DNA from: a virus
Lineage: Duplodnaviria > Heunggongvirae > Uroviricota > Caudoviricetes
Strand: one strand, 5' to 3'
Virus record (IMG/VR): IMGVR_UViG_2939172355_000006
Location: 1 to 16,754 of that record
DNA: 16,754 nucleotides
The position numbers and the translations under genes are program-made. Every line of letters begins with the position of its first letter. The first letter of the stretch is position 1. Shown here one piece after another: positions 1,012 through 16,754 of this stretch. The notes under the pieces were generated by a model. That model was given only the letters and a program-made list of their open reading frames with translations, was not told the origin of the DNA and searched no databases.

Positions 1012-1100
1012 AAGACAGGGATGGTGTCACAAAAAATCACCTAACCTACTGATATAAATGGATTTATATAAACCACTGTCCACATAGCGTCCACATCGAC

Positions 1101-1138
1101 CATAAATAAAGCCCCTCAACTGAGGGGCTATTTTTGTG
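1101..1138 (-). terminator. Hairpin terminator immediately 3' of ogr (bidirectional-looking); candidate position of the prophage att core
   Basis: GCCCCTC (1111-1117), loop AACT, GAGGGGC (1122-1128), flanked by an A-rich tract on one side and TATTTTTGTG on the other. It lies directly after the ogr stop codon. Confidence 0.55.
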
Positions 1139-1139
1139 A

Positions 1140-1358
1140 TCACATCCACATAATTTGCTGCCCTGACGGCAACGGGTGCGGCCTCACGGCGTGGACTTCT
1201 CCCGGCTTCACGATGTATCTCTGTACCGACTCATAAGTGATGAACGTGGCGCTGCAATTCACGTTCTGGCACTGGTGATAACGCTCTTTTGTCGTGTCAG
1301 TGATATAGCGGCTTGTACGCGCATGTGCGGCATGCTGGCATAAAGGACAATGAAACAT
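1140..1358 (-). CDS. ogr: Ogr, zinc-finger late-gene transcriptional activator of P2-like phages
   Basis: 72 aa product MFHCPLCQHAAHARTSRYITDTTKERYHQCQNVNCSATFITYESVQRYIVKPGEVHAVRPHPLPSGQQIMWM with a CxxC...CxxC zinc-binding arrangement; near-identical to P2 Ogr as I recall it. ATG at 1358; the ORF-track extension to 1433 is rejected. Confidence 0.9.
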   Translation of the reverse strand: MFHCPLCQHAAHARTSRYITDTTKERYHQCQNVNCSATFITYESVQRYIVKPGEVHAVRPHPLPSGQQIMWM

Positions 1359-1470
1359 CGCGAGCACCTCTTCCGGTTTTGTTGATAGTGCCATTTTAGT
1401 TAAATTATCATTATAAAACAAAAAGATAAACAAAAGACATCACTCATAATCTTCTGTTTCGTACTCCACA

Positions 1471-2286
1471 TCAGAAACCGTCGCGGCGAATCAGCGTAGT
1501 GACGCCTGACTCGTTAAGCAGGTCAGCATCGGTGCCGGACTCCTGCAAATCCCAGAATACAGATGCGCTGATGCCGGTAACACCGTTCACCCCGACATTG
1601 GACAGCGTTTTATGCCAGCCCTGCTCCTGGTCGATTTTAGCGCGCAGCCCCAGCGCACGGGCGGTGGCATACGCGGTGGCGGTGGTACTGGTGACCGTAT
1701 CCCATGCGAGGAAATCCGGCCAGATGACCATCAGCTCACGCTGGCTGAAATTCTGGCGGTAGGCTTTCACCTCGGAAATGGTTTTACAGCCCCATGCGCT
1801 GATATACCCGAAAGCGCGCAGCTTCTGACAGACTGATGCCAGTGCAACAGCCACCTCTTTGGTATCCAGCCCCGGCACGCCGAGAATACGCGGTTTAACA
1901 CCGGTTACCGACTCCGCCGCCAGCAGGGCTTTCAGTCCGGTGTACTGACCGTTTTCGTCGGTGGTGCCGATGATATTGGAAACGGTCTGCGCAAGTTTCG
2001 CTTCCTCGTCGTCGCCGGTGCCGTCTTCCACACGCACGACAACGGTGACCGGTTTTGACTGGTCGGCGATGGCCTGCAACGATGCCGCCAGCGTGCCTTT
2101 TTTACCGGCCTTTGCAATTGCGCTCTGCACATTGGTAATCAGCACTGGTTTATTGAGGGGGAAGATTTCCGCATCCGCATCGCTGGCCGTGCAGACCATG
2201 CCAACAATGGCGGTGGATACGGTGGAAATGACGCGGGTGCCGTCGTTAATCTCCAGCACCTGCACGCCGTGATGATAGTCACTCAT
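1471..2286 (-). pseudogene. Tail sheath protein (P2 gpFI-like), N-terminal 271 codons only; 3'-truncated
   Basis: Product begins MSDYHHGVQVLEINDGTRVISTVSTAIVGMVCTASDADAE..., which I recognise as the N-terminus of P2-family contractile tail sheath proteins (about 390 aa when intact). The frame stops after ...TTLIRRDGF and ogr follows 110 bp downstream with no tail tube, E, T, U or D genes in between. GGAG lies 8 nt upstream of the ATG at 2286. Confidence 0.7.
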
Positions 2287-2605
2287 CCGTTTAACTCCGT
2301 GGTTAATGGGTGCAACTATTTTCTGTTGGGCAGTGCATGAGACGCTATTTGACCTGGCTGGTCAGTGGATGAAACAACAGATAAAGAAAAGGCAGGCAAT
2401 TCGCCCGCCTGTCCTGATTTGTACTCACTCATTTTCCGACTGACAATTTACATAGCCAAAACGCTATCAAATCTGACAGTCTGCTTTGAGCGAGGAGCAG
2501 AGGTTAGTTTTAGTTAACCAAAATGATAAAAAGCAGTAGAAAAATCCGCTCATTACGTTATGGTTATAAGCCGCACATAATCATCCGAGCCAAATCCTCT
2601 TGATT

Positions 2606-3505
2606 TCAAAGAATTAGCACTTGCTCTTCACTAGAAACTATGGTTCTGACTTCACGCTCAAATATTGGATCCATTATCATTTTTCTATTTGTTGGAATAG
2701 TAAATTTACCGAGTACCATGACAATGCTACTCAACGGAAATAATTTTGGAGTAACATTTCCTAATTGAATCGTAGGATATATATTAAAGCCCCCTTTTAT
2801 CCTCATTGGCGAACCTTCAATGAAGTGTCGATAATTAAATTTCGCCATAGGGATTCTCGCCACATGCACTTTCATAATTACAGCAACCTGAGCTATTTTT
2901 ACTTTCTGGAGGTAAGTTGACAATCGTTCTAACTGCGTTGTTTCATAGAAAAAATCAGACCACGTTACAGTACTTGTTCCAGTAACAATTTTTATGCTGT
3001 TTCTCTTGTTGGGGTGAGCTTTTCCATATTCATAGATCTCCCGTAAGCTATCCATGTTCTTCACATAAGGGGCTTTCCGACCTCTCTTGACATAAACGCG
3101 GTCTGTAGTATCAGAAGGTGGATTTGCCTGCATAGCTGCAGCTTTTCTGCTTAATTTAGAGATATCATCTTCATCGAGTATATGTATACGGAATATATTA
3201 TTACCTGTGGCAAGCGCACGGCTGATATCATGACTGGAATCACTTGCATAAATTGTATTCAATCCTGAAGTTCCATACTGGCATAATTTGTCATGCGTGA
3301 AATTTTTTTCCAGTCTAAAGAAGGCGGGGATATGCAAGGTTTTATTAAAACTCCGACGAATATGGCTTTTGACATACACCAAATGAGCAGAGCAATTTGG
3401 GTCAGGACATTTGAGTGGATAGGGATTAACACTATAATTAAAAGTATTTACATTTACTAAAATCTGATTGTTATCAATAGCCTGAGTTATACGAATACCA
3501 CTCAT
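2606..3505 (-). CDS. Hypothetical 299 aa protein (AT-rich cargo gene in the Z/fun position between tail fiber assembly gene G and sheath gene FI)
   Basis: Clean ORF with ATG at 3505 preceded by GGAGGAG (4 nt spacing). Codon usage is visibly AT-rich compared with flanking phage genes. N-terminal Cys/His cluster (KCPDPNCSAHLVYVKSH...H...H...C). No family recognised by eye. Confidence 0.75.
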   Translation of the reverse strand: MSGIRITQAIDNNQILVNVNTFNYSVNPYPLKCPDPNCSAHLVYVKSHIRRSFNKTLHIPAFFRLEKNFTHDKLCQYGTSGLNTIYASDSSHDISRALATGNNIFRIHILDEDDISKLSRKAAAMQANPPSDTTDRVYVKRGRKAPYVKNMDSLREIYEYGKAHPNKRNSIKIVTGTSTVTWSDFFYETTQLERLSTYLQKVKIAQVAVIMKVHVARIPMAKFNYRHFIEGSPMRIKGGFNIYPTIQLGNVTPKLFPLSSIVMVLGKFTIPTNRKMIMDPIFEREVRTIVSSEEQVLIL

Positions 3506-3645
3506 TACTCCTCCATAAAGATAGGCGCAAGCATTTAGTAATAAACCATTAACATGCCGAGATCATACCCGATCATTGAAATGTAAACACTCCCCTAAGA
3601 CGGCTGCTGGCATAATATTTTATGACATCAGCAATGCCCACCTCT

Positions 3646-3685
3646 GGCACAGAGTGGACTGTCAGATTAGGCTTTACTCTGTGCC
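3646..3685. repeat. Inverted repeat GGCACAGAGT ... ACTCTGTGCC (10 bp arms, 20 nt loop) between gene G and the cargo gene
   Basis: Perfect 10 bp arms at 3646-3655 and 3676-3685. Not followed by a U tract on either strand, so more likely a regulatory or processing structure than a simple terminator. Confidence 0.5.
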
Positions 3686-3720
3686 ATAGATATGTAAGCC
3701 CACACTAGAGCTCATACAAC

Positions 3721-4248
3721 TTATTGCGGCATTTCCGGCCATTCAGGATTTGCAGGATCCACACGACTGACCAGAACACTATAGCGTTCCCATGCCTCCA
3801 GTCGACTACGCTCCTCATCTGTTGCCATATTCAGCCTGACCGCGCGCTCCAGCGGCAAAATCACGGATTCAGCTTCGGAAAGCAAAGCTGCCTTATGTAA
3901 TTCCGCCAGTTTCTGCTGTTCGTCTGCCGTATAAATCCGCTTAATCACGGCACCATCCTTAAACATCCATTTACCTGAGTCGTCAGCACGTCGGTTGGAG
4001 GTAATATCAGGAACCTCAACAACGCTAAAACCTTCAGGATTAAGCGTTGAAGCATCTCTGGTGATAGCGACAATAATATTATTTTCATCGTAAACAATCT
4101 TTATTGTGTCTGGCTGAAAGTTCTTCACTTCCTCATACCAGTTTTTTCCGTCCTCAGAGTAAAGCCAGATAACTCCGTGTTTCTTTGTTAACTCATACTG
4201 TTCCAGTGTTTTAGCGTTACCCGCTTTTATGTTCTTTAAGTGCATCAT
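3721..4248 (-). CDS. Tail fiber assembly protein (P2 gpG-like chaperone)
   Basis: 175 aa product [23 protein letters not shown]...[20 protein letters not shown]...[27 protein letters not shown] has the characteristic tail-fiber-assembly (Tfa/gpG) sequence pattern and sits immediately 3' of the tail fiber gene. Confidence 0.85.
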
Positions 4249-4249
4249 A

Positions 4250-5347
4250 TTAAACGCTCGCTACATTATACCAGGTGCCATTTATATACTTTTGAACGGG
4301 TCTGTAATAAACGCCCGCTATATTATCGGCAGAGTTGGACCCTGTATCCTGAACATTAATACCAGACAATACATGACCTGACGGGCACTGGAAATTCCAT
4401 GTTTGCCAGTTGTTCACTCCATAATATTGCTGTGACCCAAGTCGAACATCTTTCACATATCTGGAATCAAAATTGCCATAGTTGCCAGGAATAACTTGCG
4501 AGCCACAAAGCCAGTTACCGTTATTATCCATGTACGCCTGACCATCGGTGCCATTGGCTGTCCTTGAGTTATTAATCATGTAGATGCCAAATTGCTTATT
4601 TCCCAGACCGCCAATCATAAATTTGCGGTCGGCATGGTCCTGACGGAGCAAAGCCTGAGCACCATCAGTGGATACCGCATTACGTCCAAAAATAACATTC
4701 TGGTCACGCATATGAATCCACATGCCTGTGCTGCTGTTAATTGCAAGGCGGTTTGCGTACACCCATGCGTTAGTTGTTATATCTCCTGTAACATCCAGAG
4801 CGTGCCCCATAGTTATGCGACCAGTTCTGAGATTCAACGAAAAGGGGCGTAGTGGCCCGATATCACCATTTTCCCCCTCATTCTCTCGTGTGGGGATAAT
4901 ATGCAGGCATTCTTCAGAACGGCGAAAAATAGCACCAAAGGATGAATTAAAGATTCTCAGTGCATTGACTGTCGATATTTTTACTTCACTGCTGAAAAGG
5001 GCTTTAACAAGGACAGACAAAGCATCCCATTTAAGATTCATCAGGTCTTTTGTTGTGGTGCCCTGACGGCTTCTCCATTTGAAATATTCATTGCCGTTGT
5101 CGCCTGTTTCAAACCACATGTATGAATCAGTGTCACCATCGGCATCATTTTTAAATCCAATCTTCGCCCAGTCAGTATTTCGAATCCAGGCAAGGATTGA
5201 GTCGTTTTCAAAAGTAAGTCCACCGGACAAGGTATCGCCATTTTTTTGCACGGCGTTCCCGGCTCGGTTTACCGTTTCCTGTAAACCGAGATATTCGATA
5301 ACGGCGGCAACGGTCGATTTAGCCAGAATACCGTGAGCGCGCTGGTT
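4250..5347 (-). pseudogene. Tail fiber protein (P2 gpH-like), C-terminal ~365 codons; 5'-truncated, no start codon
   Basis: The frame opens directly after an in-frame stop at 5348-5350 and reads ...GILAKSTVAAVIEYLGLQETVNRAGNAVQKNGDTLSGGLTFENDSILAWIRNTDWAKIGF...[17 protein letters not shown], matching the conserved middle and C-terminal receptor-binding part of P2-type tail fibers. The N-terminal baseplate-attachment domain is missing. The track start at 5251 is a GTG inside the fragment. Confidence 0.72.
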
Positions 5348-5691
5348 TCAGGTTCATACTCAATCACCGCCCCGTCAGGGAAACGGATATGCAGGGCATC
5401 CGCCGACGCAGACGGCGCGGGGTTATCGCCGGAATAAATCCCCGGCAGAACGAACGCCGTGTCGAGTTCACCACCCACGGCCAGAATCAGCACCTGTTCC
5501 CCCACGGAAGGTGCCCACCATGTGCGCGAACGCCCGGCGCGATGGGTCAGCCACTGAAGCCAGTCGGTGCACATGCCGCCGGTCTGCACACGGCAGCGAC
5601 CGGCATTAAGGTCGGTTTCGACGATAATGCCGGTGCGGATCATGTTGCGCAGTGCGCGCGCGAGTTCCTGAATATTTGCGAGAGTGTTCAT
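5269..5691 (-). pseudogene. Baseplate spike protein (P2 gpV-like), N-terminal fragment fused out of frame into the tail fiber remnant
   Basis: From the ATG at 5691: MNTLANIQELARALRNMIRTGIIVETDLNAGRCRVQTGG...IRFPDGAVIEYEPETSALTV matches the gpV N-terminus, then reads FWLNRPLPPLSNISVYRKR*, which is the tail fiber DNA in a different frame. Baseplate genes W, J and I are absent. Confidence 0.7.
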
Positions 5692-5774
5692 GCGTGTGAG
5701 ATTGCACAATATATAAAAGTTATGCTATCTGGATTCATTTGTAGAACGACCATACAACATTCGAGGAGAGCGTA

Positions 5775-6560
5775 ATGTTCAGTGATAATGTGACTAATGC
5801 GTGGTGGTTTATCTCTTTGTATCTATTTTTATTAATAGCATTAACATTTGTTACCTTTGGTAAAAGTAATCTTATGAGGTTTATTGCACATCATTTCAAT
5901 CTTGAGTATTCAGACAGAAAGTTAAAAATGCTCGACAAAAAATGGCGCGACATTCAACTATTTAAAATAATTAACGGAATCAATGTATCAGGCATCGAAG
6001 ATGTGAGAATGATACAGCAGGGGCTGATTGATGGAAAACTAAAAACATCGTATTTTTTCCTTACTCGCTTCTGGGGTGACATAACAAAACCACCACACAT
6101 AATTAAAACAACAATTGTAATTCTGGCCAGTATTATTTATATTCTCTTCGCATGTTATATACACAATGAACAATCCGCTATAGTAAGGGATGCCATAGGT
6201 ATACCATATAAAAATATGATGTACTATGTTTATAGTGACAAAGTTCTTTTATCCTTCAAAAATAAAACGGTTGAATTTAATAAAACTTATAGCCTTGCCG
6301 ATTGCAAGAGTCTGCAAAACGTATTTATAAAAGACACACTTCCCGAGATCGCCTGCAATAAGCTCTTACAGCTAAACAAGGAGGACTCCGAATGGTTAAG
6401 TCAGGAGATTAAAGATAATAACAGCTACAGAAAAACATTATTAATAATGTCCCTAACCTATTTCATTTCAGGTCTGCTTATATTCCTGTCATATACAAAA
6501 TTCCTTTACGCCAATAAGAAGGTTTTAGAATACAAAGCATCAAATAAAAACCACTCATAA
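5775..6560 (+). CDS. Hypothetical integral membrane protein, 261 aa (AT-rich insertion between S and V, opposite strand to the late genes)
   Basis: ATG at 5775 preceded by GAGGAG (4 nt spacing). Three strongly hydrophobic segments (AWWFISLYLFLLIALTFVTF; IIKTTIVILASIIYILFACYI; LLIMSLTYFISGLLIFLSYT). Very AT-rich; no family recognised. Confidence 0.6.
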   Translation: MFSDNVTNAWWFISLYLFLLIALTFVTFGKSNLMRFIAHHFNLEYSDRKLKMLDKKWRDIQLFKIINGINVSGIEDVRMIQQGLIDGKLKTSYFFLTRFWGDITKPPHIIKTTIVILASIIYILFACYIHNEQSAIVRDAIGIPYKNMMYYVYSDKVLLSFKNKTVEFNKTYSLADCKSLQNVFIKDTLPEIACNKLLQLNKEDSEWLSQEIKDNNSYRKTLLIMSLTYFISGLLIFLSYTKFLYANKKVLEYKASNKNHS

Positions 6561-6570
6561 ACCTCTAAAT

Positions 6571-6597: not shown

Positions 6598-6631
6598 GCT
6601 TAATTGCGCATCAGCCTCTGCCTGGATAAAA

Positions 6632-7084
6632 CTAACGCTCAAGGTGAGCCAGGATAATCTCTTCAATCATCTGCACATCCTCACCGGTAAAGCCGAGCAG
6701 AGGACGCGCCGGATAATCAATTTTCTTACCGTCTTTCCGGTTTTCTTCCGACAGACCGAACTGATGCACACTGGCGATTTTCGGTGACTTCCCGCCGTAA
6801 AACTCCATTGATGCCTGTTCCGGGCTGGCGCGGATATGCAAAAAACGACTGGTGATAAGTTTCGCAAACATTTTTCGCTTAACACGACCGGTCTTTTTTC
6901 TGGCGCTCTGCTGCTGGCGTGGCGCGTAGGGTGTGCCGTCCGGAGTTTTCTGTGCCATCACCCGACGCTGCTGACTCTGCCGCAGGCGTTTCGCCAGTTC
7001 GGCACTCAGTCGCCGACGCCCTGACGGTGACAGCGATTCAATCAGTCCGGTCAGCCGGTCTTCAAAACGCTTAAACTCATTCAT
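6632..7084 (-). CDS. Tail completion protein S (P2 gpS-like)
   Basis: 150 aa MNEFKRFEDRLTGLIESLSPSGRRRLSAELAKRLRQSQQRRVMAQKTPDGTPYAPRQQQ...IILAHLER; matches P2 gpS in length and sequence as recalled. Start overlaps the end of R by 8 nt. Confidence 0.85.
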   Translation of the reverse strand: MNEFKRFEDRLTGLIESLSPSGRRRLSAELAKRLRQSQQRRVMAQKTPDGTPYAPRQQQSARKKTGRVKRKMFAKLITSRFLHIRASPEQASMEFYGGKSPKIASVHQFGLSEENRKDGKKIDYPARPLLGFTGEDVQMIEEIILAHLER

Positions 7085-7544
7085 CCCACTTGCTCACCAG
7101 TTCGCCATTGATATACAGCTCCATCGGGCGGGTGACCGGCTCCGGCGGCGGAGGTTCCGGGATATTCTTCACATGCAGCGCGCCGTCCACCTCACTGACC
7201 AGCGTGCGCTCGGTCAGCATCAGGCTGATACTGATATCAAAGCTGCTGTCATTGTTGATGTCCGCATAAAACGTGAAGCCCTTTTTCTGGCCTGCGTCGG
7301 TGGTCATGATGTCGGGCTGATTTTCCCGCAGCCACGCTAGCACCGGCACGATGAGCAGGTCAAAATCACCGGTAAAGTCGGTCACAATGACATTGAGCGT
7401 GTAACGCTTTTCAAATGACAGCGACCTCGCCAGTGTGGAGGCAATACTCCCGTTATCCACGAATATCCGCAGCATCTCGGGACTGGTTTTCAGCACCGTG
7501 ACAGCATCAGTCAGCGCCCTGCGCAGGCTGTCGGGTTTGAGCAT
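7077..7544 (-). CDS. Tail completion protein R (P2 gpR-like)
   Basis: 155 aa MLKPDSLRRALTDAVTVLKTSPEMLRIFVDNGSIASTLARSLSFEKRYTLNVIVTDFTGDFDLLIVPVLAWLREN...; matches P2 gpR in length and sequence as recalled. Confidence 0.85.
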   Translation of the reverse strand: MLKPDSLRRALTDAVTVLKTSPEMLRIFVDNGSIASTLARSLSFEKRYTLNVIVTDFTGDFDLLIVPVLAWLRENQPDIMTTDAGQKKGFTFYADINNDSSFDISISLMLTERTLVSEVDGALHVKNIPEPPPPEPVTRPMELYINGELVSKWDE

Positions 7545-7797
7545 CGTTTTCGTCCTGACAGTGTTTAATCATTTTTACCTGGCTGGCACAGCGTGCCAGC
7601 GCGTTCTCAAGCTGCCGGATATCAGCACTTAAATCGCCGTTCGTCTCCGGGTCACTGCCCGGCATCGGGCAAAGGCTCACTTTCGGGCAGGCGTTGTGGA
7701 CAATCACTGGCGTCGGCGCAGGCCGGGCGCTGGTGCAACCGGCGCACAGCATCAGGCAGGTCAGCGCCGTACCAGCGGCGAAAATCTTCGTTTTCAT
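7507..7797 (-). CDS. lysC: LysC, outer-membrane lipoprotein spanin (Rz1-like), encoded out of frame within the 3' part of lysB
   Basis: From the ATG at 7797: MKTKIFAAGTALTCLMLCAGC... has a signal peptide with a lipobox (LCAGC), Pro-rich, 96 aa. Embedded in an alternative frame of the lysB region (overlap 7652-7797) and extending into R, the known P2 spanin arrangement. The ORF-track extension to 7914 is rejected. Confidence 0.7.
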   Translation of the reverse strand: MKTKIFAAGTALTCLMLCAGCTSARPAPTPVIVHNACPKVSLCPMPGSDPETNGDLSADIRQLENALARCASQVKMIKHCQDENDAQTRQPAQGAD

Positions 7798-8077
7798 TAA
7801 GTAACCTCGTGATGGTTTTCTCGCGCTGTGCTTCACGCTTCGCGGCGTTCTCCAGCTCCTGACGCAGTGCCACCTGCGCCAGCTCGTTTTTGTCTGCCCT
7901 GGTAAGGGCAACATGAAGCTGATTTTTCAGCATGGTGATGGTCGTCTGCTGTTCACTGGCGACGTTGTTCGCCCTGTCCAGCGAGGCGCGCAGGCTGGCA
8001 TTTTTGTGTTTCACCAGAAACAGACCGGCCACCGCCAGTGATAACAACACGACCAGCACAATCATCAGCTTTGACAT
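7652..8077 (-). CDS. lysB: LysB, inner-membrane spanin (Rz-like)
   Basis: 141 aa with an N-terminal TM segment (MSKLMIVLVVLLSLAVAGLFLV) followed by a charged coiled-coil-like region; matches P2 LysB. Confidence 0.8.
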   Translation of the reverse strand: MSKLMIVLVVLLSLAVAGLFLVKHKNASLRASLDRANNVASEQQTTITMLKNQLHVALTRADKNELAQVALRQELENAAKREAQREKTITRLLNENEDFRRWYGADLPDAVRRLHQRPACADASDCPQRLPESEPLPDAGQ

Positions 8078-8490
8078 GGTTCCCGCCCCTCAAAACGCTG
8101 ACAGCAGGCCGTACGTATCAGCCGGAAGAACACCGATGCCACGAGATAAATCAGCGCGGTAAAAATCCCCCCGGCAGCGACCAGCGAGATAAACGTCGCC
8201 ACCATCACTACCAGAGCCACTGACCGCCTGCGCCACGGCACCGGCTGCAAAAACAGCGCCGTGACAATCTTCACGGCCAGCGATTCCGGCGGCAGCTCCC
8301 GCCCGTAACGTTCCAGTACATACTCAGTGGCATACACGCCGACACCACCGGCAACCACACAGATAACCGTCGCCAGAATCGCCCAGGCGGCGACAAAACT
8401 GACGGCCACGCTCTGCGGGTAAATCAGGGACAGTGCCAGCATCAGCGCCAGCGACACGTTCAGCATCAGTGAAAGGGATAATTTCTTCAT
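8065..8490 (-). CDS. lysA: LysA, membrane protein of the P2 lysis cassette (lysis timing)
   Basis: 141 aa MKKLSLSLMLNVSLALMLALSLIYPQSVAV... with four hydrophobic segments; matches P2 LysA. No holin (Y) or endolysin (K) gene lies upstream of it; a portal fragment on the other strand abuts its start codon. Confidence 0.8.
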   Translation of the reverse strand: MKKLSLSLMLNVSLALMLALSLIYPQSVAVSFVAAWAILATVICVVAGGVGVYATEYVLERYGRELPPESLAVKIVTALFLQPVPWRRRSVALVVMVATFISLVAAGGIFTALIYLVASVFFRLIRTACCQRFEGREPCQS

Positions 8491-9364
8491 GGTGTTTACT
8501 CCGTTTACCGGTCTGGCAAAAAGCCTGCGTGCTGCCGTGCATCACAGCTCACCGATTTACGTCAAACGTAACATTCTGGCCTCAACGTTTATCCCACACC
8601 CGTGGCTTTCTCAGCAGGATTTCAGCCGCTTTGTGCTGGATTTTCTGGTATTCGGTAATGCGTTTCTGGAAAAGCGTTACAGCACCACCGGTAAGGTCAT
8701 CAGACTGGAAACCTCACCGGCAAAATATACCCGCCGTGGCGTGGAGGAGGATGTTTACTGGTGGGTGCCGTCCTTCAACGAGCCGACACCTTTCGCGCCC
8801 GGCTCCGTGTTTCACCTGCTGGAGCCGGATATTAATCAGGAGCTGTACGGTCTGCCGGAATATCTCAGCGCCCTTAACTCTGCCTGGCTGAATGAGTCGG
8901 CCACGCTGTTCCGCCGCAAGTATTACGAAAACGGCGCTCATGCCGGATATATCATGTACGTCACTGATGCCGTGCAGGATCGCAACGATATCGAAATGCT
9001 TCGCGAAAACATGGTGAAGTCGAAAGGCCGCAACAACTTTAAAAACCTGTTTCTCTATGCCCCGCAGGGGAAAGCTGACGGCATTAAAATTATCCCGCTC
9101 AGTGAAGTGGCAACGAAGGACGATTTTTTTAATATCAAAAAAGCCAGCGCCGCTGACCTGCTGGACGCGCACCGCATCCCCTTTCAGTTGATGGGCGGCA
9201 AGCCGGAGAACGTCGGGTCGCTGGGTGATATTGAGAAAGTAGCAAAGGTCTTTGTCCGCAATGAGCTTATCCCGTTACAGGACAGGATCCGCGAGATAAA
9301 CGGCTGGCTCGGTCAGGAGGTCATCCGATTTAAAAACTACTCACTGGACACTGACAACGGCTGA
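8489..9364 (+). pseudogene. Portal protein (P2 gpQ-like), C-terminal ~270 codons; 5'-truncated
   Basis: ...SPIYVKRNILASTFIPHPWLSQQDFSRFVLDFLVFGNAFLEKRY...YIMYVTDAVQDRNDIEMLRENMVKSKGRNNFKNLFLYAPQGKADGIKIIPL...GQEVIRFKNYSLDTDNG reads as the C-terminal part of a P2-family portal. Strand and position next to cos fit the P2 map. The N-terminal part and the terminase gene P are missing; the exact 5' boundary is uncertain. Confidence 0.6.
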
Positions 9365-9533: not shown

Positions 9534-9552
9534 GTGCTTTCCCCGCCTCGCC
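9534..9552. other. cos site: 19 nt P2-type cohesive end sequence (reverse orientation in this window)
   Basis: GTGCTTTCCCCGCCTCGCC at 9534-9552 is the reverse complement of GGCGAGGCGGGGAAAGCAC, which I recall as the P2 cohesive end. Its position between the portal gene 3' end and the old/tin-position cargo is as expected. Confidence 0.55.
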
Positions 9553-9779: not shown

Positions 9780-10853
9780 ATGGATAACAAAATCGTAGAA
9801 ATTGAGACAAATAAGCTTGATTTTGACCCTAAAAACCCACGTTTCTTTCGTCTCAATGATGCCAGTAACGCTGCAACAGTCATTGAGGAAATGTTAGATG
9901 ACGAAAGTGTCCACGATCTAATGCTATCAATCGGTCAGCAAGGTTACTTTCCTGGAGAACCTTTATTGGCAGTAAAAAGCAATGGAAACTACATCGTGGT
10001 TGAGGGAAACAGACGCTTAGCTGCTGTAAAGTTGCTCAATGGAGATCTGCTTCCTCCAAAAAGAAAACTTAAAGGTGTGCAAGAAATCATTGATGATACT
10101 ACCAATAAACCTAAGAAGCTTCCCTGCATCATTTATGAAAACCGAGAGGATGTACTGAGATATATCGGTTATCGTCATATAACTGGGGTCAAAGAATGGG
10201 ACTCATTATCTAAAGCCAAATACCTTAAAGAGTTATGTGATACTTTTTATTCACATGAGCCTAAAGAGATAGTATTAAAAAATCTGGCTCGTGAGATTGG
10301 GAGTAAACCACATTATGTTGCAACACTTCTCACTGCACTGAACTTATATGAAGTCGCGCATGACCATGAGTTTTTTAATTTACCCATGAAGGCTTCTGAC
10401 GTGGAATTTTCATATATAACCACAGCTTTGGGATATTCAAAAATCACAAACTGGTTAGGTCTACAGGATAAAAAGGATTTTTTAGACCCAAATTTAAATG
10501 AAGAAAACCTTAAGCGTTTATTCTCTTGGTTTTTTGTGCCTGACCAACAAGGTAGAACCATCATCGGTGAGTCTCGAAGAATAAAAGATATTGCAGCAGT
10601 GGTTGAGAAACCCGAAGCAATTGAAATTCTCATGAAAAGTTCAAACTTGGATGAAGCATATCTATATACCAGCGGAGAAAGAGAAGCATTAGATAAAGCA
10701 CTAAACGCAGCTAGTGTTAAATTAAGAGTAGTTTGGGATATGCTACTTAAAGCTAAAGAATTAACATTAGAGCATGAAGAGGCTGCATCTGAAATTTTTG
10801 AGATGTCAAAAAATATTAGAAATCAGATCAGAAGCAAAAGGGAGGATGATTGA
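9780..10853 (+). CDS. ParB/Srx-like nuclease-domain protein, 357 aa (cargo gene 1 in the old/tin position)
   Basis: ATG at 9780 preceded by GAGG (7 nt spacing). The N-terminal ~90 aa carry ParB N-terminal domain signatures: IVEIETNKLDFDPKNPR ... VHDLMLSIGQQGYFPGEPLLAVKSNGNYIVVEGNRRLAAVKLL (GxRR box at about nt 10005-10016). C-terminal two thirds are helical and unrecognised. AT-rich. The track start at 9648 has no RBS and is rejected. Confidence 0.8.
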   Translation: MDNKIVEIETNKLDFDPKNPRFFRLNDASNAATVIEEMLDDESVHDLMLSIGQQGYFPGEPLLAVKSNGNYIVVEGNRRLAAVKLLNGDLLPPKRKLKGVQEIIDDTTNKPKKLPCIIYENREDVLRYIGYRHITGVKEWDSLSKAKYLKELCDTFYSHEPKEIVLKNLAREIGSKPHYVATLLTALNLYEVAHDHEFFNLPMKASDVEFSYITTALGYSKITNWLGLQDKKDFLDPNLNEENLKRLFSWFFVPDQQGRTIIGESRRIKDIAAVVEKPEAIEILMKSSNLDEAYLYTSGEREALDKALNAASVKLRVVWDMLLKAKELTLEHEEAASEIFEMSKNIRNQIRSKREDD

Positions 10854-11883
10854 GATTATGATTACAAATCTTGATTCAATGCCTTCTAATGAGCCTTATT
10901 TATGGGCTGATTATATTGAGATATTGGCCTTAACTAATATCGACAGGTCATTCAGTCGAGGAGACCTATATAGCACACTGCAAGCTCAACCCGAAGCAGT
11001 ACTAGCTGAAACAGATGAAGCAGAAGAAGAGGGCGTTTATGATGTTGATGATGAAAATGATACGCCTGTACGCAAGAGAACAAAACGAAGTGTTAGTCGA
11101 GCATATACTGACAGAAAGTGGAGCTATGCGATAGGCTTCATACGACAACGCATTGATTTATTTGGGGATAGTTACCCTTTTACTTTATCAGAAGACAACG
11201 ATACTGTAGAGTTACGTGATATATCAGAAAAGCCACTGGAACATTTAGAAAGACTATATTTAGCTTTACTAATCTGTGCTAACATAAAATATGTCAACAT
11301 AATGAGCAGAAGAGAGATAACGCGCAGTTTTGAACTAATTAGTTTACCTATTTTTGAAAGCCTAATGCCTAGCGGTAGCATAATAAAAGCATGCTGGGCT
11401 TCTGGTGGTCAAGCGGCCCCTTACACTGGAACTCTATATAATAAATTTAAGAGTATTGCTTCCGATATCCGTTGCACAGCGAACTTCAAAGAACGAGATT
11501 TCAGTCGAGGAAATAGTGGTGACGGAGGCCTTGACATAATTGCCTGGCATCCAATGGGAGATCAACGAGATGCCATCCCTATTTCTTTTGTTCAGTGTGG
11601 CTGTTCTCAAGAAGAGTGGGAAGCGAAGCAGCTTGAGGCCTCACCTGCGATGCTCTACAGTAAATTCCCCGTAGCTCACCGATGGGCAACTTATTATTTC
11701 TTACCTCAAGATCTACGATGGATAGATGGTGAGTGGGCGCATAAAAATAAGTTAGGCGATGCTATTTTTGTTGATCGCCTAAGATTAATCAATTTAACCA
11801 GAGCATCTGATAATATTGATCACAGTCAAAATATTAGCTATCTAGATATCATCCTTGATCCTTCCAGCGCGATCGCTGCTTAA
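10846..11883 (+). CDS. Hypothetical ~340 aa protein, candidate PD-(D/E)xK-type nuclease (cargo gene 2), translationally coupled to the ParB-like gene
   Basis: Start ATG at 10846 overlaps the upstream stop (ATGATTGA) with GGAGG immediately 5'; an alternative ATG is at 10858. C-terminal region has ...GNSGDGGLDIIAWHP-(x21)-ISFVQCGCSQEEWEAK..., compatible with a D ... E-x-K catalytic core (about nt 11520-11630). Stop TAA at 11881-11883 overlaps the convergent methyltransferase stop. Confidence 0.65.
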   Translation: MIEIMITNLDSMPSNEPYLWADYIEILALTNIDRSFSRGDLYSTLQAQPEAVLAETDEAEEEGVYDVDDENDTPVRKRTKRSVSRAYTDRKWSYAIGFIRQRIDLFGDSYPFTLSEDNDTVELRDISEKPLEHLERLYLALLICANIKYVNIMSRREITRSFELISLPIFESLMPSGSIIKACWASGGQAAPYTGTLYNKFKSIASDIRCTANFKERDFSRGNSGDGGLDIIAWHPMGDQRDAIPISFVQCGCSQEEWEAKQLEASPAMLYSKFPVAHRWATYYFLPQDLRWIDGEWAHKNKLGDAIFVDRLRLINLTRASDNIDHSQNISYLDIILDPSSAIAA

Positions 11884-12818
11884 TCCCATAAATCTGGAAG
11901 GTTTCTAGCAACCGCCTCAAACAATGGAGGCGGTACTGCATTACCTACCACAGTATATTTCATATTAATAGAAGCCCGTTCAGTTTCTGGGAAAATTAAA
12001 TCCCCAAAACCTTGTAAAATAGCAGCCTCTCGATAGCTAAACCTACGAGCTGGTGCATCCGAAGTAAATTGCCACTTATCAGGTCCCAATTTTTCTAATG
12101 TTGGACTTATTGGATGTAGAGGCATATGTCTAGGATTTGCAACAATTGTTTTAGATATCTGATCCCAATCTTGCCTACGGTTTCGCGATAGATAATACCA
12201 ATGAAAATCGGCGTCATAAAACTCGCCAACAGGCCAAACAGGCATATGCCCAATAGCATCACGAATTGTGGAATATGGTGTCAAACCATCACCATGTGTT
12301 GGTTTTGGAAATTTGTATGTAATACCGTAGTCCTTTCGTATTCCTACGATAAAGATTCGCTTCCTATCTTGGGATACCCCATAATGGGACGCATTCAGAA
12401 TTTGCGAGCTTACTGTATAACCTGCTTCTTCGAAAACTTTGAATTGATCCTTTAATAAATGCTCAAAGTTACGCCTTACCATACCAGAGACATTCTCTAC
12501 AATGAATGCTTTTGGCTTAATTTTACTCAAAGCACGGGCAAACTCTAAATATAGTGTATTAATCTTTCTATCTGCCTTCCTTGCCCCACCTTGACTAAAT
12601 CCTTGGCAAGGATAGCATCCGATGAGCAACTCAGCAGAAGGGAACGACTGGAGCCCTGAGATATCGCCCAAAATGTAGTCAGTTTCAGGATGGTTTTCTA
12701 AGTAAACGTCCCTTGCGTAAGGCAAAATATCATTTGCCATAAGCACATTGAAACCTGCGTTCAAAACTCCCGCATCAGAACCACCACATCCAGAAAAAAG
12801 TGAAACTACAGTTGGCAT
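11880..12818 (-). CDS. DNA (cytosine-5)-methyltransferase, 312 aa (cargo gene 3)
   Basis: Canonical m5C-MTase motifs in standard order: FSGCGG (motif I, aa 8-13), PCQGFS (motif IV, aa 70-75), ENV (motif VI, aa 108-110), QDRKRIFIVG (motif VIII), GNAVPPPL (motif X). ATG at 12818 preceded by GGAGG at 5 nt. Convergent with the upstream ORF, with a 4 nt overlap (TTAA). Confidence 0.9.
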   Translation of the reverse strand: MPTVVSLFSGCGGSDAGVLNAGFNVLMANDILPYARDVYLENHPETDYILGDISGLQSFPSAELLIGCYPCQGFSQGGARKADRKINTLYLEFARALSKIKPKAFIVENVSGMVRRNFEHLLKDQFKVFEEAGYTVSSQILNASHYGVSQDRKRIFIVGIRKDYGITYKFPKPTHGDGLTPYSTIRDAIGHMPVWPVGEFYDADFHWYYLSRNRRQDWDQISKTIVANPRHMPLHPISPTLEKLGPDKWQFTSDAPARRFSYREAAILQGFGDLIFPETERASINMKYTVVGNAVPPPLFEAVARNLPDLWD

Positions 12819-13060
12819 TGACCCCTCCTAAAAACCGACCGCGTATTATAGCGAAACACCCCGTTGGGAAAAGCTAGATTTTGCCAAGTCTTGATATTCT
12901 CACGTTTTAGTAGTTGTGGCCATCTTTAACGAGAAAAAGATAAAATTGACTTCTCATTAATTTTCAATAGGTTTAATTGTAAGCTCAAACTAACGCCTCG
13001 CGACACTCGTTATTCAACCCCGCCAGCCCTGAAAACAAGTTTCACGACTGGCGGCGTTCT

Positions 13061-13267
13061 CTATCGTCTGCGTTGTGGTGGCGCAACTCTGGACTGACCG
13101 ATATGGTTAAACCGCCCGTAATTATCCCGGACTATTTCGGCACACCCGACCAGCTCATCGGGCGTCAGATTTTCGTTGACCATAATCCGCTGTAAACGCT
13201 GAACAATAGCCATCAGCTTGATATTTTTAGTTTTATGGTGCGGTATCTCGCCTGGTATTCTGTGCAT
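13061..13267 (-). CDS. Small hypothetical protein, 68 aa, translationally coupled (TAATG) to the upstream gene
   Basis: ATG at 13265-13267 overlaps the TAA of the preceding gene. MHRIPGEIPHHKTKNIKLMAIVQRLQRIMVNENLTPDELVGCAEIVRDNYGRFNHIGQSRVAPPQRRR. No recognisable domain; could be a regulator. Low confidence that it is expressed. Confidence 0.4.
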   Translation of the reverse strand: MHRIPGEIPHHKTKNIKLMAIVQRLQRIMVNENLTPDELVGCAEIVRDNYGRFNHIGQSRVAPPQRRR

Positions 13268-13719
13268 TATCCAAGCCACCCGTTTTGCTGTGCACGCTCC
13301 ATCTGTTCATCTGAATAGTTCCATGCTCCATCCGTGGCAACCATTGCCCCGCCAGACATCCCCGTCTCTGGTTCATACATAACAGCAAGGCCGAGCTGAT
13401 GCATAATTTCATGATTAATTCTGAATACCAGACCACGCTCACTAAGTTCTTTCCAGTTCACAATCTCACATGCGCCTGTATTAAGCCGCTCAATACTTAG
13501 CAAGACATAATCTTCCAGCCAGTCTGACAGGTCAGTAACATCTGTTATCCGGGCTTCAACCTTTCGCCCCGTATACACACCCTGCACCCATTCATGCAAA
13601 ATCAACGTGTCCCCGCGCTCATAATTACGGTCATTTTTCCGAAACTCTGCGCGTTTCTTTCCTTCCAGCACAAGGTCAAAATATTTTGCGTGCAGCTTTA
13701 CCTCGTGAATTTTTGCCAT
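13267..13719 (-). CDS. Hypothetical 150 aa protein with ASCH/DUF3850-like N-terminal region and a C-terminal HExxH motif
   Basis: ATG at 13719 overlaps the upstream stop (TAATG) with GGAG 9 nt upstream. [44 protein letters not shown]... resembles the small ASCH-like proteins found in P2-family early operons; the tail contains FRINHEIMHQLGL (HExxH). Confidence 0.55.
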   Translation of the reverse strand: MAKIHEVKLHAKYFDLVLEGKKRAEFRKNDRNYERGDTLILHEWVQGVYTGRKVEARITDVTDLSDWLEDYVLLSIERLNTGACEIVNWKELSERGLVFRINHEIMHQLGLAVMYEPETGMSGGAMVATDGAWNYSDEQMERAQQNGWLG

Positions 13720-14252
13720 TATGTCCACTCCATTACTGTTGAGAATCCCGGCCACTCATCAGCGACCGGATACGTGAATTTTTTCCCGTCATAATTTACG
13801 GTCGCTCCACGCGCCAGCGCCTCAAGCTCCCATCGCTGAGGCCTGATACCGTTCTGAGCAAGGTCAACGCGGATACGGGTGATTTGCATTCGTTCCGACC
13901 GGGTCAGTCTGGCCGACGGTGCAATTTCATGTGTTTTTAACGGGCTTCCGTTTCTTTGTTGACGATTTGGTGTTTTCAGGCCGTGTTTTAATGCTCCCCT
14001 GAGCGCCCTCACGACCTCCGGGTCATTCCATTCGATAACACCGTCATCAACCAGATTTAGCACTGCTGCGGCGTGCTCAGAAGGTGTGGGAGCCGGTAAC
14101 GAAGCATCACTACCGGTGAGCTTTGTGATGTGGCGAATCATGGCGTCAAGATGAGAAGAAAAGCGCGTTGCTGCGTCGGCCTGTGCTTCGGTTCTGACCT
14201 GTTGCAGCAGTAATGCGTATTTACCGCACTGATTTTCAGAAACTGTATGCAT
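13719..14252 (-). CDS. Early-operon ORF, 177 aa; probably a deletion fusion whose C-terminal ~140 aa derive from the 3' end of replication initiator gene A
   Basis: ATG at 14252 with GGAG at 6 nt. The C-terminal part (...[38 protein letters not shown]...[21 protein letters not shown]) matches what I recall as the C-terminus of P2 gpA, but no rolling-circle initiator domain and no ~2.3 kb A gene exist anywhere between B and cos. The fusion interpretation is an inference. Confidence 0.5.
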
Positions 14253-14315
14253 GACTTTCTCCAGGCAAAAAGAAGCCCCGCACAATTAAGTGCGTTAAAA
14301 ACTCTGGTTAATTAC

Positions 14316-14816
14316 TTAATGCAGATATTGCTCTGGTTTTACCGACGTCAGGATTGTCGGTGCATACTCAAACAGGCTGAATAATTCACGTAATGCACGG
14401 AATAAGGCATCACGCCAGTAACATGATTCTTCATTAATTCGCCAGTATGGCTGGTTGAATTCTTTTTCAGTCAATCCGGCATGCATAAATAAAGTACGGC
14501 GCTGACTGACAGTTAAAAAGCTAATATATGCATACTCACTTGCACCGACCTGACGGCGTTTTGAGAATGCCCCACGCAATTCATCAATTGCACATACCAG
14601 TCGTTCACGTTCGACGTCGTTCATTTCTTCAAAACGCATCGTTGCGTGACGCTGTTTTAACTGTGCATGAAAGCAAACCGTTAGCCGTTCGCGCTCCATC
14701 ATCTGATTATAATAATCACATGTATCCTGCCAGCGAGGGACGGCAAGATGCTTGCCAATTATCCGGCGCATAGCTGCTGGCTGTTTTTCAACGAGATTGA
14801 GCGTCATCACTGTCAT
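14316..14816 (-). CDS. Replication protein B (P2 gpB-like, helicase loader)
   Basis: 166 aa MTVMTLNLVEKQPAAMRRIIGKHLAVPRWQDTCDYYNQMMERERLTVCFHAQLKQRH...; length and position (after cox and a small ORF) match P2 gene B. Confidence 0.65.
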   Translation of the reverse strand: MTVMTLNLVEKQPAAMRRIIGKHLAVPRWQDTCDYYNQMMERERLTVCFHAQLKQRHATMRFEEMNDVERERLVCAIDELRGAFSKRRQVGASEYAYISFLTVSQRRTLFMHAGLTEKEFNQPYWRINEESCYWRDALFRALRELFSLFEYAPTILTSVKPEQYLH

Positions 14817-14983
14817 TTCCAGCCCCTCCGGCTTTTCAGAAAGGTCAGAGCCTTTTTTAACGGACTCTGTTTTTTGGTGCGGATAATGATTCCCTTACGC
14901 CCCTTACCGTGGGTGATGGTGAAGTCAATCGCCCTGGGGCTTTCGTTACGCAGTAACTGAGCAATACAACGCGGTTCACTCAT
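14813..14983 (-). CDS. Small early-operon ORF between cox and B (P2 orf78 position), 56 aa
   Basis: ATG at 14983 lies 2 nt after the cox stop; the stop overlaps the B start (ATGA). MSEPRCIAQLLRNESPRAIDFTITHGKGRKGIIIRTKKQSPLKKALTFLKSRRGWK. Start choice is uncertain (alternative ATG at 15010 has no RBS). Confidence 0.4.
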   Translation of the reverse strand: MSEPRCIAQLLRNESPRAIDFTITHGKGRKGIIIRTKKQSPLKKALTFLKSRRGWK

Positions 14984-14985
14984 AA

Positions 14986-15258
14986 TCACAACCCCATCCA
15001 CAAAAGCCATGCATCACGCTGTTCAACTGGTCGGTTATAAAACGCCTCTCGTACAGCGCGATTAAACTCTGGAATGAAAACCCACTTCTCACCGACACGA
15101 GCGTTCGGCTTACTTGGATCACGAAGCTCAATAACTGGCAACTTATTCTCTTTTACCATCTTGACTACAGCCGTTTCTGGCTTACCAAGTAACTCTGCAA
15201 ACTTAACCGTATGTACCGCATCAATCGGGTACTGAATCACATAGTCATTGACTTCCAT
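14986..15258 (-). CDS. cox: Cox-like excisionase / directionality factor and early-promoter regulator
   Basis: 90 aa, first gene of the rightward early operon, divergent from C. The central region (...KLPVIELRDPSKPNARVGEKWVFIPEFN...WLLWMGL) resembles P2-family Cox proteins (P2 Cox is 91 aa). Confidence 0.7.
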   Translation of the reverse strand: MEVNDYVIQYPIDAVHTVKFAELLGKPETAVVKMVKENKLPVIELRDPSKPNARVGEKWVFIPEFNRAVREAFYNRPVEQRDAWLLWMGL

Positions 15259-15297
15259 TGATTAGCCCTTTTTGCTTTCGTGTTACCCTTATTAGAT

Positions 15298-15338
15298 CCA
15301 GTCCCTTCTAGGTCGCACCTGTCCTTTCTAGGGACTGG
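15298..15338. promoter_or_regulatory. Operator-like element in the cox-C divergent promoter region: two 12 bp direct repeats (GTCCCTTCTAGG / GTCCTTTCTAGG) nested in an inverted repeat CCAGTCCCT ... AGGGACTGG
   Basis: Direct repeats at 15301-15312 and 15321-15332, 20 bp centre to centre (two helical turns); the outer 9 bp arms at 15298-15306 and 15330-15338 are perfect reverse complements. P2 C repressor is known to bind direct repeats at Pe. Confidence 0.45.
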
Positions 15339-15373
15339 CTAACACACTCAAAAGGTCACCAATACACAACCTT

Positions 15374-15403
15374 TTGACGGGAATATAAGTCACCAATAGG
15401 TTA
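15374..15403 (+). promoter_or_regulatory. Candidate Pc promoter for the repressor gene (TTGACG, 17 bp spacer, TAGGTT), implying a near-leaderless transcript
   Basis: -35 TTGACG at 15374-15379 and -10 TAGGTT at 15397-15402 with a 17 bp spacer. The predicted start is about 7 nt before the C ATG, and there is no Shine-Dalgarno sequence ahead of C. Confidence 0.35.
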
Positions 15404-15410
15404 CTGTCAA

Positions 15411-15704
15411 ATGCAGACATTCGAAAAACTGAAAGCGATTAGGAAAGCAGAAGGCTTAACACAGGCGAAATTCAGCGAAATTAGCGGGATAGCTCTAGGA
15501 ACAGTCAAAAATTACGAAAGTGGGCATAAAGACCCTGGTCTCAGCATCGTTATGCGAGTCACAAATACGCCTTTATTTAAAAAATATACGCTCTGGTTAA
15601 TGACTGGTGATACGTCACCACAAGCTGGTCAGATCGCGCCGGCTCTCGCACACATTGGGCAAAAACCAACAGAATCAGACCACTCCGAAAAACAGACTGG
15701 TTAA
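15411..15704 (+). CDS. C: Immunity repressor C (P2 C-like)
   Basis: 97 aa (P2 C is 99 aa); the ...FKKYTLWLMTGDTSPQAGQIAPALAHIGQKPTESDHSEKQTG tail is close to P2 C as recalled. Divergent from cox and upstream of int, as in P2. Confidence 0.8.
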   Translation: MQTFEKLKAIRKAEGLTQAKFSEISGIALGTVKNYESGHKDPGLSIVMRVTNTPLFKKYTLWLMTGDTSPQAGQIAPALAHIGQKPTESDHSEKQTG

Positions 15705-15773
15705 CACTCTATAAACATTACATTTTCACCATTTGTTACCAAGATGGTGAATACAGCGTCAGAGGGCTTTCTT

Positions 15774-16754
15774 ATGTCAATTAAGAAGCTCGATGATGGA
15801 CGCTATGAAGTGGACATTAGACCTCGCGGTCGCGACGGAAAACGCATCCGCAGGAAATTTGAAAGAAAAGCTGAGGCTGTAGCATTTGAGCGATACACAA
15901 TCGCCTACGCCAGCCAGAAAGAATGGGCAGGTCAGCGAGCAGATCGCAGAACTTTGAGTGAGTTGCTGAACATCTGGTGGAAATATCACGGGCAAAACCA
16001 CGAGCATGGAACAAAAGAGTTTAATCATCTGCTCAAAACCATCAGCGGCATAGGTGATATACCAGTGAGCCGGATGAGCAAAAGAGCTTTGATGGATTAT
16101 CGTTCCATGCGACTACGTGATGGTATCAGTGCCGCAACGATAAACCGTGACATGTACCGATTATCCGGCATGTTCACAAAATTAATTCAATTGGATGAAT
16201 TTTCCGGGCAACACCCAATTCACGGACTGCCGCCACTGGCGGAGGCCAACCCTGAAATGACGTTCCTGGAAAAAGCAGAAATCGAAAAACTGTTAAATGT
16301 TTTGGATGGTGATGACTTACTTGTCGCACTTTTATGTCTGAGCACTGGAGGAAGATGGACGGAAGTTGCCACGCTAAAACCAGCACAGATTACAAATTGC
16401 AGGGTTACCTTCCTGAAAACCAAAAACGGTAAAAAGCGAACCGTGCCGATTTCTGAGGAACTGGAGAAAAAAGTTAAAGAGGAGGCCAGCGCTAAATTAT
16501 TCAAAGTTGATTATGAGAAGTTTTGCGGGATTTTACGCAGAGTGAAGCCAGATATACCACCCAATCAGGCAACCCACATCCTGCGGCATACATTCGCAAG
16601 CCATTTCATGATGAATGGGGGCAATATAATCGCACTGCAACAGATTCTGGGACATGCGAGCATTCAGCAGACGATGGCCTATGCGCACCTTGCGCCTGAC
16701 TACCTGCAAAATGCCGTCGCGCTGAATCCTCTAAAAGGCGGAGTGACGTTATAA
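15774..16754 (+). CDS. int: Tyrosine integrase (P2 Int-like)
   Basis: ATG at 15774 preceded by AGAGGG (7 nt spacing). 326 aa with an N-terminal arm-binding region (MSIKKLDDGRYEVDIRPRGRDGKRIRRKFERKAEAVAFE) and catalytic-domain signatures near the C-terminus (HILRHTFASH; LGHASIQQTMAYAHL with the catalytic Tyr). Stop TAA is the last codon of the window. Confidence 0.9.
   Translation: MSIKKLDDGRYEVDIRPRGRDGKRIRRKFERKAEAVAFERYTIAYASQKEWAGQRADRRTLSELLNIWWKYHGQNHEHGTKEFNHLLKTISGIGDIPVSRMSKRALMDYRSMRLRDGISAATINRDMYRLSGMFTKLIQLDEFSGQHPIHGLPPLAEANPEMTFLEKAEIEKLLNVLDGDDLLVALLCLSTGGRWTEVATLKPAQITNCRVTFLKTKNGKKRTVPISEELEKKVKEEASAKLFKVDYEKFCGILRRVKPDIPPNQATHILRHTFASHFMMNGGNIIALQQILGHASIQQTMAYAHLAPDYLQNAVALNPLKGGVTL

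Follow-up and report, generated by a model that had tools for sequence, protein, structure and literature searches.

Four deletions spare the accessory loci of a P2-like prophage remnant confined to one clone of Escherichia coli ST410

We analysed a stretch of 16,754 nucleotides of viral DNA (IMG/VR record IMGVR_UViG_2939172355_000006, positions 1 to 16,754; hereafter the window, whose numbering is used throughout) and found that positions 982-16754 are what remains of a P2-like (Peduovirus) prophage inserted at fieF-cpxP, an attachment site of Escherichia coli sequence type 410 (ST410). Compared with the fully intact prophage that strain RL465 carries at the identical fieF/cpxP site, the window shows exactly four deletions and 0 substitutions in 16,754 bp. 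The deletions avoid three AT-rich accessory loci (hereafter cargo), the regulatory switch (int, C and cox) and the late activator gene ogr, and all four are shared by a single clone. The explanation that we favour, and consider probable, is that of a young wreck of a P2-type prophage in ST410, in which deletions were filtered over the short term and the cargo is intact mainly through youth. The deletion pattern is no evidence of long-term domestication, and domestication at the level of the host is a less likely reading.

The window opens with fieF (bases 1-921) and ends on the int stop codon, and complete genomes show that the element runs 116 bp further to attL, followed by cpxP. A blastn comparison with P2SIAC10, a complete phage genome of 33,562 bp, gave 99.4% identity over 93% of the query in seven blocks, and this collinear, high-identity match to complete P2-like phages, together with 100% identity to the RL465 prophage, identifies the element as a P2-like remnant. 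Strain RL465 itself is ST410 (PMC4994348). The attachment (att) sites are copies of a 47-bp direct repeat, the second of which (attL) lies 116 bp beyond the int stop, just outside the window, so that int adjoins attL. The repeat includes the fieF terminator hairpin CCCCCACATCATGTGGGGG, and integration therefore regenerates the terminator. Since both att copies, int, cox and the cohesive-end site (cos) are intact, the remnant is still excisable in principle. The 19-nucleotide cos sequence, GTGCTTTCCCCGCCTCGCC, is one that we take to be that of P2.

Where the original prediction had claimed at least four deletions, the blastn map against P2SIAC10 and RL465 resolved exactly four (Table 1). Together they remove 17,695 bp, about 53% of the prophage, and microhomology of 2-4 bp is present at all four junctions; the sole apparent mismatch to RL465 lies within the imperfect microhomology at junction A. 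In a table of 44 phage genes, 17 are deleted, 8 are truncated (D, FI, H, V, K, Q, A and orf80) and 19 are intact. The losses comprise capsid, terminase, tail tube, tape measure, baseplate, holin and endolysin, while the sheath and portal genes are truncated and 82% of A is deleted; from this gene content the remnant is predicted to be unable to form virions or to replicate. Decay consists of the four deletions only, with 0 frameshift or nonsense pseudogenes in the remnant. The intact set includes the five cargo genes with int, C, cox and ogr, and it extends to ten genes outside both cargo and switch (G, S, R, lysA, lysB, lysC, B, orf78, the DUF3850/ASCH gene and a 68-amino-acid orf). Everything that the deletions missed is thus intact, and intactness is no special property of the cargo. 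The statement that cargo, int, cox, C and ogr are full length with good ribosome-binding sites was confirmed, in that Shine-Dalgarno-like sequences precede their starts; it reflects the youth of the remnant. The tail-fibre fragment H' retains an open reading frame of 333 amino acids (4250-5251, minus strand), which RefSeq annotates as a normal protein and which is a deletion product, no gene in its own right.

Relative to P2SIAC10 we counted 103 mismatches, clustered in A' (24), H' (56), FI' (7) and the DUF3850 gene (8) and reaching up to 6%, with 0-1 mismatches in the cargo and most other genes and 0-1 over about 9 kb elsewhere. As RL465 matches the window exactly in A', H', FI' and the DUF3850 gene, the differences from P2SIAC10 represent recombinational mosaicism of P2-like phages and no pseudogene decay. 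The ratio of nonsynonymous to synonymous substitution rates (dN/dS) of cargo against remnant genes accordingly gave no usable signal, there being 0 substitutions to RL465 and only mosaic ancestry behind the differences from P2SIAC10.

The only usable signal of selection is the placement of the deletions. One deletion falls in each of the four core blocks, which are bounded by ogr, the three cargo loci and the switch. When a permutation scattered four deletions of the observed sizes at random, without overlap, along the 33.5-kb prophage, the five cargo coding sequences were spared in 0.5% of trials (P≈0.005), and the cargo together with int/C/cox and ogr in 0.1% (P≈0.001). Survival of C and the methyltransferase of cargo 3 alone has P=0.18, and conditional on it the probabilities become 0.011 for the cargo and 0.0065 for cargo, switch and ogr. 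The sparing of useful genes is nominally non-random, as a post hoc result on a single case. The asymmetry that the original prediction drew between eroded virion and replication genes and preserved cargo therefore stands in one part, the sparing of cargo and switch (P about 0.001-0.006), and falls in another, ten ordinary phage genes being equally intact and point pseudogenes being absent. We infer that selection rather than chance shaped the placement, and its kind is inferred likewise.

With four 56-bp junction tags as query, 5426 complete E. coli genomes were searched, and exactly 68 of them contained all four junctions. This strict query found none among the 5426 with only some of the four junctions, and a hybrid query for intermediates (A deleted, B and C intact) matched no genome. 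Comparison of homologous loci across E. coli, which had been proposed as a check, thus revealed a shared four-deletion pattern, confined to the 68 genomes of a single clone; these are near-identical, and vertical retention across diverged lineages was not found. Of the 60 copies ranked highest, 57 are unchanged but for one single-nucleotide polymorphism (SNP) at most. The carriers are carbapenem-resistant high-risk-clone isolates, and three of them, E2, WCHEC115106 and RUT3575, are compared in the literature with ST410 high-risk-clone genomes. The remnant goes back to a single, recent course of events on a short branch of one clone. At typical E. coli clock rates, zero substitutions would correspond to an age of decades to at most a few centuries. 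Zero substitutions within one clone leave no divergence from which dN/dS could be computed.

Longer junction queries of 371 bp matched 74, 68, 70 and 68 genomes (A, B, C and D), the surplus of 2-6 genomes representing other loci whose flanks were joined by a 685-bp rule. In six genomes at the junction A region and in two at the junction C region, none of them belonging to the clone of 68, the two flanks are no more than about 685 bp apart; other P2 remnants may there have undergone similarly sized deletions independently. The ST410-like strain EC45 (NZ_CP059125) carries an otherwise full-length sister prophage in which the insertion sequence (IS) ISEc12, of the IS21 family, truncates gpO (locus positions 36079-38381). 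The insertion site falls in the interval later lost through deletion C, and IS inactivation may precede deletion.

The same three-locus cargo set is also present in the complete phage record P2SIAC10. Cargo 1 matches phrog_7195 only, with no Pfam, PADLOC, NCBIfam or PDB sequence match; its homologues form only 12 protein clusters in 5.8 billion, and its AlphaFold model is poor (predicted local distance difference test, pLDDT, 51), below use for structure search. Cargo 2 shares 84% amino acid identity with Orf30 of phage P2 and is predicted from its sequence to be a membrane protein. Neither cargo 1 nor cargo 2 matched a defence model in the PADLOC scan. Cargo 3 sits between Q/cos and A, at the published cos-proximal hotspot, and comprises three genes (3a-3c). 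The N-terminal ~150 amino acids of 3a (residues 1-151) match positions 1-158 of the PADLOC PD-Lambda-5_A profile, which spans 440-500 positions, and residues 41-327 match PDC-M38A; a full-length match to PD-Lambda-5_A was not obtained. The 3c product matches PF00145 over its full length (1e-61), consistent with a DNA methyltransferase bearing its catalytic motifs, and 3b is a putative cognate endonuclease. Cargo 3 is probably a restriction-modification-like module with an accessory ParB-N protein. Cargo 3 is a doubtful candidate for the 'putative plasmid partitioning system' of Rousset 2022, 3a having a weak ParB-N match and no ParA partner. The term 'defence island' for the three loci is plausible on their positions, and putative.

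Related prophages vary at these same positions. In those with identical C and int at fieF/cpxP, the cos-proximal locus between Q and A (about 2-5.5 kb in each) holds quite different genes: GmrSD_N with HEPN and a C5 methyltransferase, HipA-like/HIRAN with Rv2179c-like, HATPase_c_3 with a methyltransferase, or HNH_2. Several of these variants pair a C5 methyltransferase with a different partner. Among prophages with identical Ogr, the Z/fun site beside FI (about 0.5-3.5 kb per locus) is variable, holding a DarT-macrodomain (DarTG-like) pair, invertase-flanked tail-fibre segments, a 259-amino-acid gene or the 299-amino-acid cargo 1. When further remnants were sampled by way of the exact Ogr and C proteins, nearly all matches were intact prophages; the sample demonstrates hotspot variability and provides no decay statistics.

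Within the clone, seven later changes to the remnant were detected, and three of these lie in cargo coding sequence, which makes up 30% of the remnant's length. A T>C change at position 15397, in the spacer of the early promoter Pe and 14 nucleotides upstream of the C start codon, is carried by at least 33 of the 60 copies ranked highest, KBN10P04869, 18-4, E22 and CM178617 among them; the base is T in both the window and RL465. The P2 C operators are presumably located at this site, between the -35 and -10 hexamers of the early promoter. The gene 3b was knocked out twice independently within the clone, by a nonsense change, L141* (TTA>TGA, T>G at position 11267), in strain E22 and similar assemblies, and by IS5 inserted at positions 11002-11005 in FXCREC123 and JXZ9A32M; the methyltransferase gene 3c is always intact. 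The remaining changes are a missense change in 3a (strain 18-4), IS2 inserted 63 bp upstream of 3a (E2), IS4 between attR and ogr (three genomes) and a 6-bp intergenic deletion (NIPH17_0036). All three changes in coding sequence (a nonsense change, a missense change and an IS insertion) fall in cargo 3, none being synonymous, and none of the seven changes lies in the 5.7 kb of other intact genes, structural or regulatory. The concentration of all three coding-sequence events in cargo has P about 0.09, on small numbers. The expectation that cargo is disrupted less often than structural genes was in part reversed, three of seven later changes being in cargo coding sequence and 0 in surviving structural or regulatory genes. 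Small as these numbers are, the later changes point away from protected cargo in an otherwise decaying element; they agree with the order in which a restriction-modification pair would be expected to lose its genes, and they suggest that the predicted nuclease 3b is costly or dispensable to the host.

The gene order given by RefSeq in an identical copy runs ogrK, truncated tail sheath, 299-amino-acid hypothetical, tail-fibre assembly, truncated fibre, truncated V and 261-amino-acid hypothetical; then S, R, lysC, lysB, lysA, truncated portal, ParB-N protein, hypothetical, C5 methyltransferase and two small genes; and last truncated A, B, orf78, cox, C and int. Coordinates are collected in Table 1.

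Table 1. Features of the P2-like remnant and its deletion junctions, in window coordinates.
Feature	Position	Strand	Description
attR	982..1028		47-bp direct repeat, longest repeat common to both flanks; phage match begins at 982
ogr	1140..1358	-	Late-gene activator, intact; identical to intact phage and RL465; OgrK in RefSeq
Junction A	1474..1477		5456 bp gone: D (except 38 bp), U, T, E/E', FII, C-terminal 31% of FI; microhomology GAAA
FI'	1478..2286	-	Tail-sheath fragment (pseudogene); RefSeq annotation, gene table
Cargo 1	2606..3505	-	Z/fun hotspot (between G and FI); 299 amino acids; about 36% GC; intact, identical to RL465
G	3721..4248	-	Tail-fibre assembly; intact, non-cargo; RefSeq annotation, gene table
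H'	4250..5330	-	C-terminal tail-fibre fragment; RefSeq annotation, gene table
Junction B	5329..5330		3027 bp gone: H N-terminus, I, J, W, V C-terminus; microhomology TA
V'	5331..5691	-	Baseplate fragment (pseudogene); RefSeq annotation, gene table
Cargo 2	5775..6560	+	P2 Orf30 homologue; 261 amino acids; about 34% GC; three hydrophobic segments; intact
S, R, lysC, lysB, lysA	6632..8490	-	Five intact non-cargo late genes; RefSeq annotation, gene table
Junction C	8504..8507		6448 bp gone: K (truncated in gene table), Y, X, L, M, N, O, P, Q N-terminus; microhomology TTTA
Q'	8508..9364	+	Portal fragment (pseudogene); RefSeq annotation, gene table
cos	9534..9552		19-nucleotide cohesive-end sequence, intact; ends of the linear phage record abut at 9552/9553
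Cargo 3a	9780..10853	+	ParB-N-domain protein; 357 amino acids; PADLOC matches, weak ParB matches
Cargo 3b	10846..11883	+	Predicted winged-helix and PD-(D/E)xK nuclease; likely restriction partner of 3c
Cargo 3c	11880..12818	-	C5 DNA cytosine methyltransferase, convergent with 3b; PF00145 1e-61; PADLOC DruM/MTase_II; TIGR00675
68-amino-acid orf, DUF3850/ASCH gene	13061..13719	-	Both intact; RefSeq annotation, gene table
A'	13719..14124	-	Replication endonuclease fragment (pseudogene), final 18% of gene; RefSeq annotation, gene table
Junction D	14121..14124		2764 bp gone: 82% of A, orf83, orf82, orf81, part of orf80; microhomology CTTT
B, orf78, cox	14316..15258	-	All intact; RefSeq annotation, gene table
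Pe	15382..15410	-	Early promoter (TTGACA-17-TATATT); contains 15397 T>C, the clone's only common SNP
C	15411..15704	+	Immunity repressor, intact; RefSeq annotation, gene table
int	15774..16754	+	Intact; RefSeq annotation, gene table

In the explanation that we favour, a P2-like prophage at fieF-cpxP of ST410 would have been wrecked on one short branch by four separate microhomology-mediated deletions, each confined to a single core transcription block. One falls in the tail F operon, one in the V operon for baseplate and fibre, one in the O and P operons for lysis and head, and one in the early replication genes. An origin of all four in a single multi-break event was considered as an alternative. 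The remaining DNA, namely the accessory loci, int-C-cox, ogr, cos, the att sites and ten phage genes, would be identical to the intact prophage because almost no time has elapsed. That only core DNA was deleted may be read most simply as a short-term filter on which deletions survive; losing the C repressor or the methyltransferase would be harmful as long as the lytic genes or the nuclease remained functional. The accessory loci may contribute some benefit, and cargo locus 3 is already losing its nuclease gene in sublineages. Several points weigh against this explanation. The P-value is post hoc and comes from a single case chosen for showing the pattern; the order of the deletions is not recoverable, as no intermediates were found; cargo 1 and cargo 2 received no assignable function in the Pfam, PADLOC and NCBIfam scans; and there is no obvious selective reason for sparing int and ogr.

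The original prediction had seen a domesticated defence island, in which the host gains anti-phage cargo, perhaps controlled by C, Cox and Ogr, and selection keeps cargo and switch. This is a contender, if a doubtful one. The deletions avoid all three accessory loci and the switch, and their non-random placement is the part of the selection claim that held. A retained C repressor would moreover give immunity to homoimmune phages. The loci occupy two published P2 defence hotspots and the orf30 site, 3a has a domain common to PD-lambda-5, 3b and 3c resemble a restriction-modification pair, and defective P2/P4 elements bearing near-identical defence genes are known from a 2026 survey discussed below, which considered that they might be domesticated. 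Against this stand the zero substitutions since the intact ancestor, the restriction to 68 genomes of a single clone and the equal intactness of ten non-cargo genes. Cargo 3 was moreover hit repeatedly (3b twice knocked out, 3a by a missense change and by IS2 63 bp upstream) with the other intact genes unhit, cargo 1 and cargo 2 lack a defence-model match in PADLOC, and the P2 remnant of K-12-type strains has lost all cargo, keeping ogr and 213 bp of D.

Chance with hitch-hiking, that is, four neutral deletions in core DNA (76% of the prophage) fixed by the expansion of a drug-resistant ST410 subclade, would suit the single clone, the absence of intermediates and substitutions, the carbapenem-resistant high-risk-clone background of the carriers and a case chosen after the pattern was seen. 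We regard it as unlikely, given the nominal P of 0.001-0.006 and a loss of 17.7 kb in four deletions against zero substitutions in 16.7 kb, which looks faster than neutral loss would be expected to proceed. Selfish addiction is quite improbable in our judgement; here the retained modules would be those whose loss kills the cell, with no gain to the host, the methyltransferase being needed with an active nuclease and C with lytic or toxic early genes. Other accessory genes of the prophage (morons) may, on this explanation, act like toxin-antitoxin pairs. A nuclease-fold gene convergent with a C5 methyltransferase is a typical type II arrangement, the nuclease gene was lost twice in the clone with the methyltransferase always intact, which is the order that addiction predicts, and holin and endolysin are still present in the intact sister prophage. 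The placement nevertheless stays improbable after conditioning on C and the methyltransferase (P about 0.0065-0.011), cargo 1 and Orf30 show no sign of being addictive, and int and ogr are not addictive. A further reading, that the 15.9-kb remnant is an incipient helper-dependent element, a satellite in the making, draws on the retention of both att sites, int, cox, C, ogr and an intact cos, and is highly improbable. In principle it would excise and be packaged by a co-infecting P2-like helper, for instance as a dimer of about 31.8 kb nearly filling a P2 head; if this were true, the three accessory loci would move horizontally.

Among known systems, the closest are the defective P2/P4 elements of a 2026 survey ('Cryptic genomic islands...', Nucleic Acids Research (NAR) 2026, PMC13586616), whose sample was selected by defence-gene homology; their mobility genes are pseudogenised, often including the replication gene, near-identical defence genes are retained, and domestication was left open. 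The ST410 remnant resembles them in its lost replication gene and intact hotspot genes, and differs in having an exact intact ancestor-like prophage at the same site, four defined deletions and visible later cargo knock-outs. Accessory hotspots of P2-like phages have been described at the cos-proximal old/tin, Z/fun and orf30 positions (Rousset 2022, PMC9122126; Vassallo 2022, PMC9519451), to which cargo 3 (between Q/cos and A), cargo 1 (between G and FI) and cargo 2 (an Orf30 homologue) correspond; unlike for the published hotspot genes, defence by these cargo genes is putative. One such system, PD-lambda-5, a 'compacted RM+Abi' of a P2-like prophage (Vassallo 2022, PMC9519451), shares with cargo 3 the N-terminal ParB-like domain, a locus with DNA methylation and the P2 hotspot, whereas here the match is limited to residues 1-151 of 3a and there are three genes with a separate C5 methyltransferase. 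The K-12-type P2 remnant at trhP/yegR (CY598, locus positions 4851-5363) retains only an intact ogrK and 213 bp of D, and is independent of and older than the ST410 remnant. Both belong to the P2 family and keep ogr intact; in the K-12-type remnant, unlike that of ST410, all cargo, switch, cos and int are gone, an end state of decay without cargo retention. Like a P4-like satellite, the ST410 remnant has a cos site, an integrase and att sites; unlike one, it has A reduced to its last 18%, and the genes annotated or scanned include neither a primase homologue nor one of sid, psu, delta or epsilon. The concept of domesticated defective prophages, which Bobay, Touchon and Rocha are said to have set out in PNAS in 2014, reportedly rests on vertical inheritance across lineages and purifying selection. 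The ST410 remnant is likewise a deletion-inactivated prophage with some genes kept, but vertical inheritance and purifying selection cannot be demonstrated for it.

Prophage domestication, the hotspots of P2 and defective P2 elements whose defence genes survive have all been published before, and the conceptual addition made here is small; what is new is a well-resolved example, a matched intact/deleted pair within an epidemic clone. Intact prophage and four-deletion derivative, at the same site and with no substitutions between them, form a natural before/after pair, which makes the first steps of prophage decay and the selective sparing of accessory loci testable in ST410 isolates. The repeated loss of the predicted nuclease gene suggests that the host can do without at least one cargo gene or pays a cost for it.

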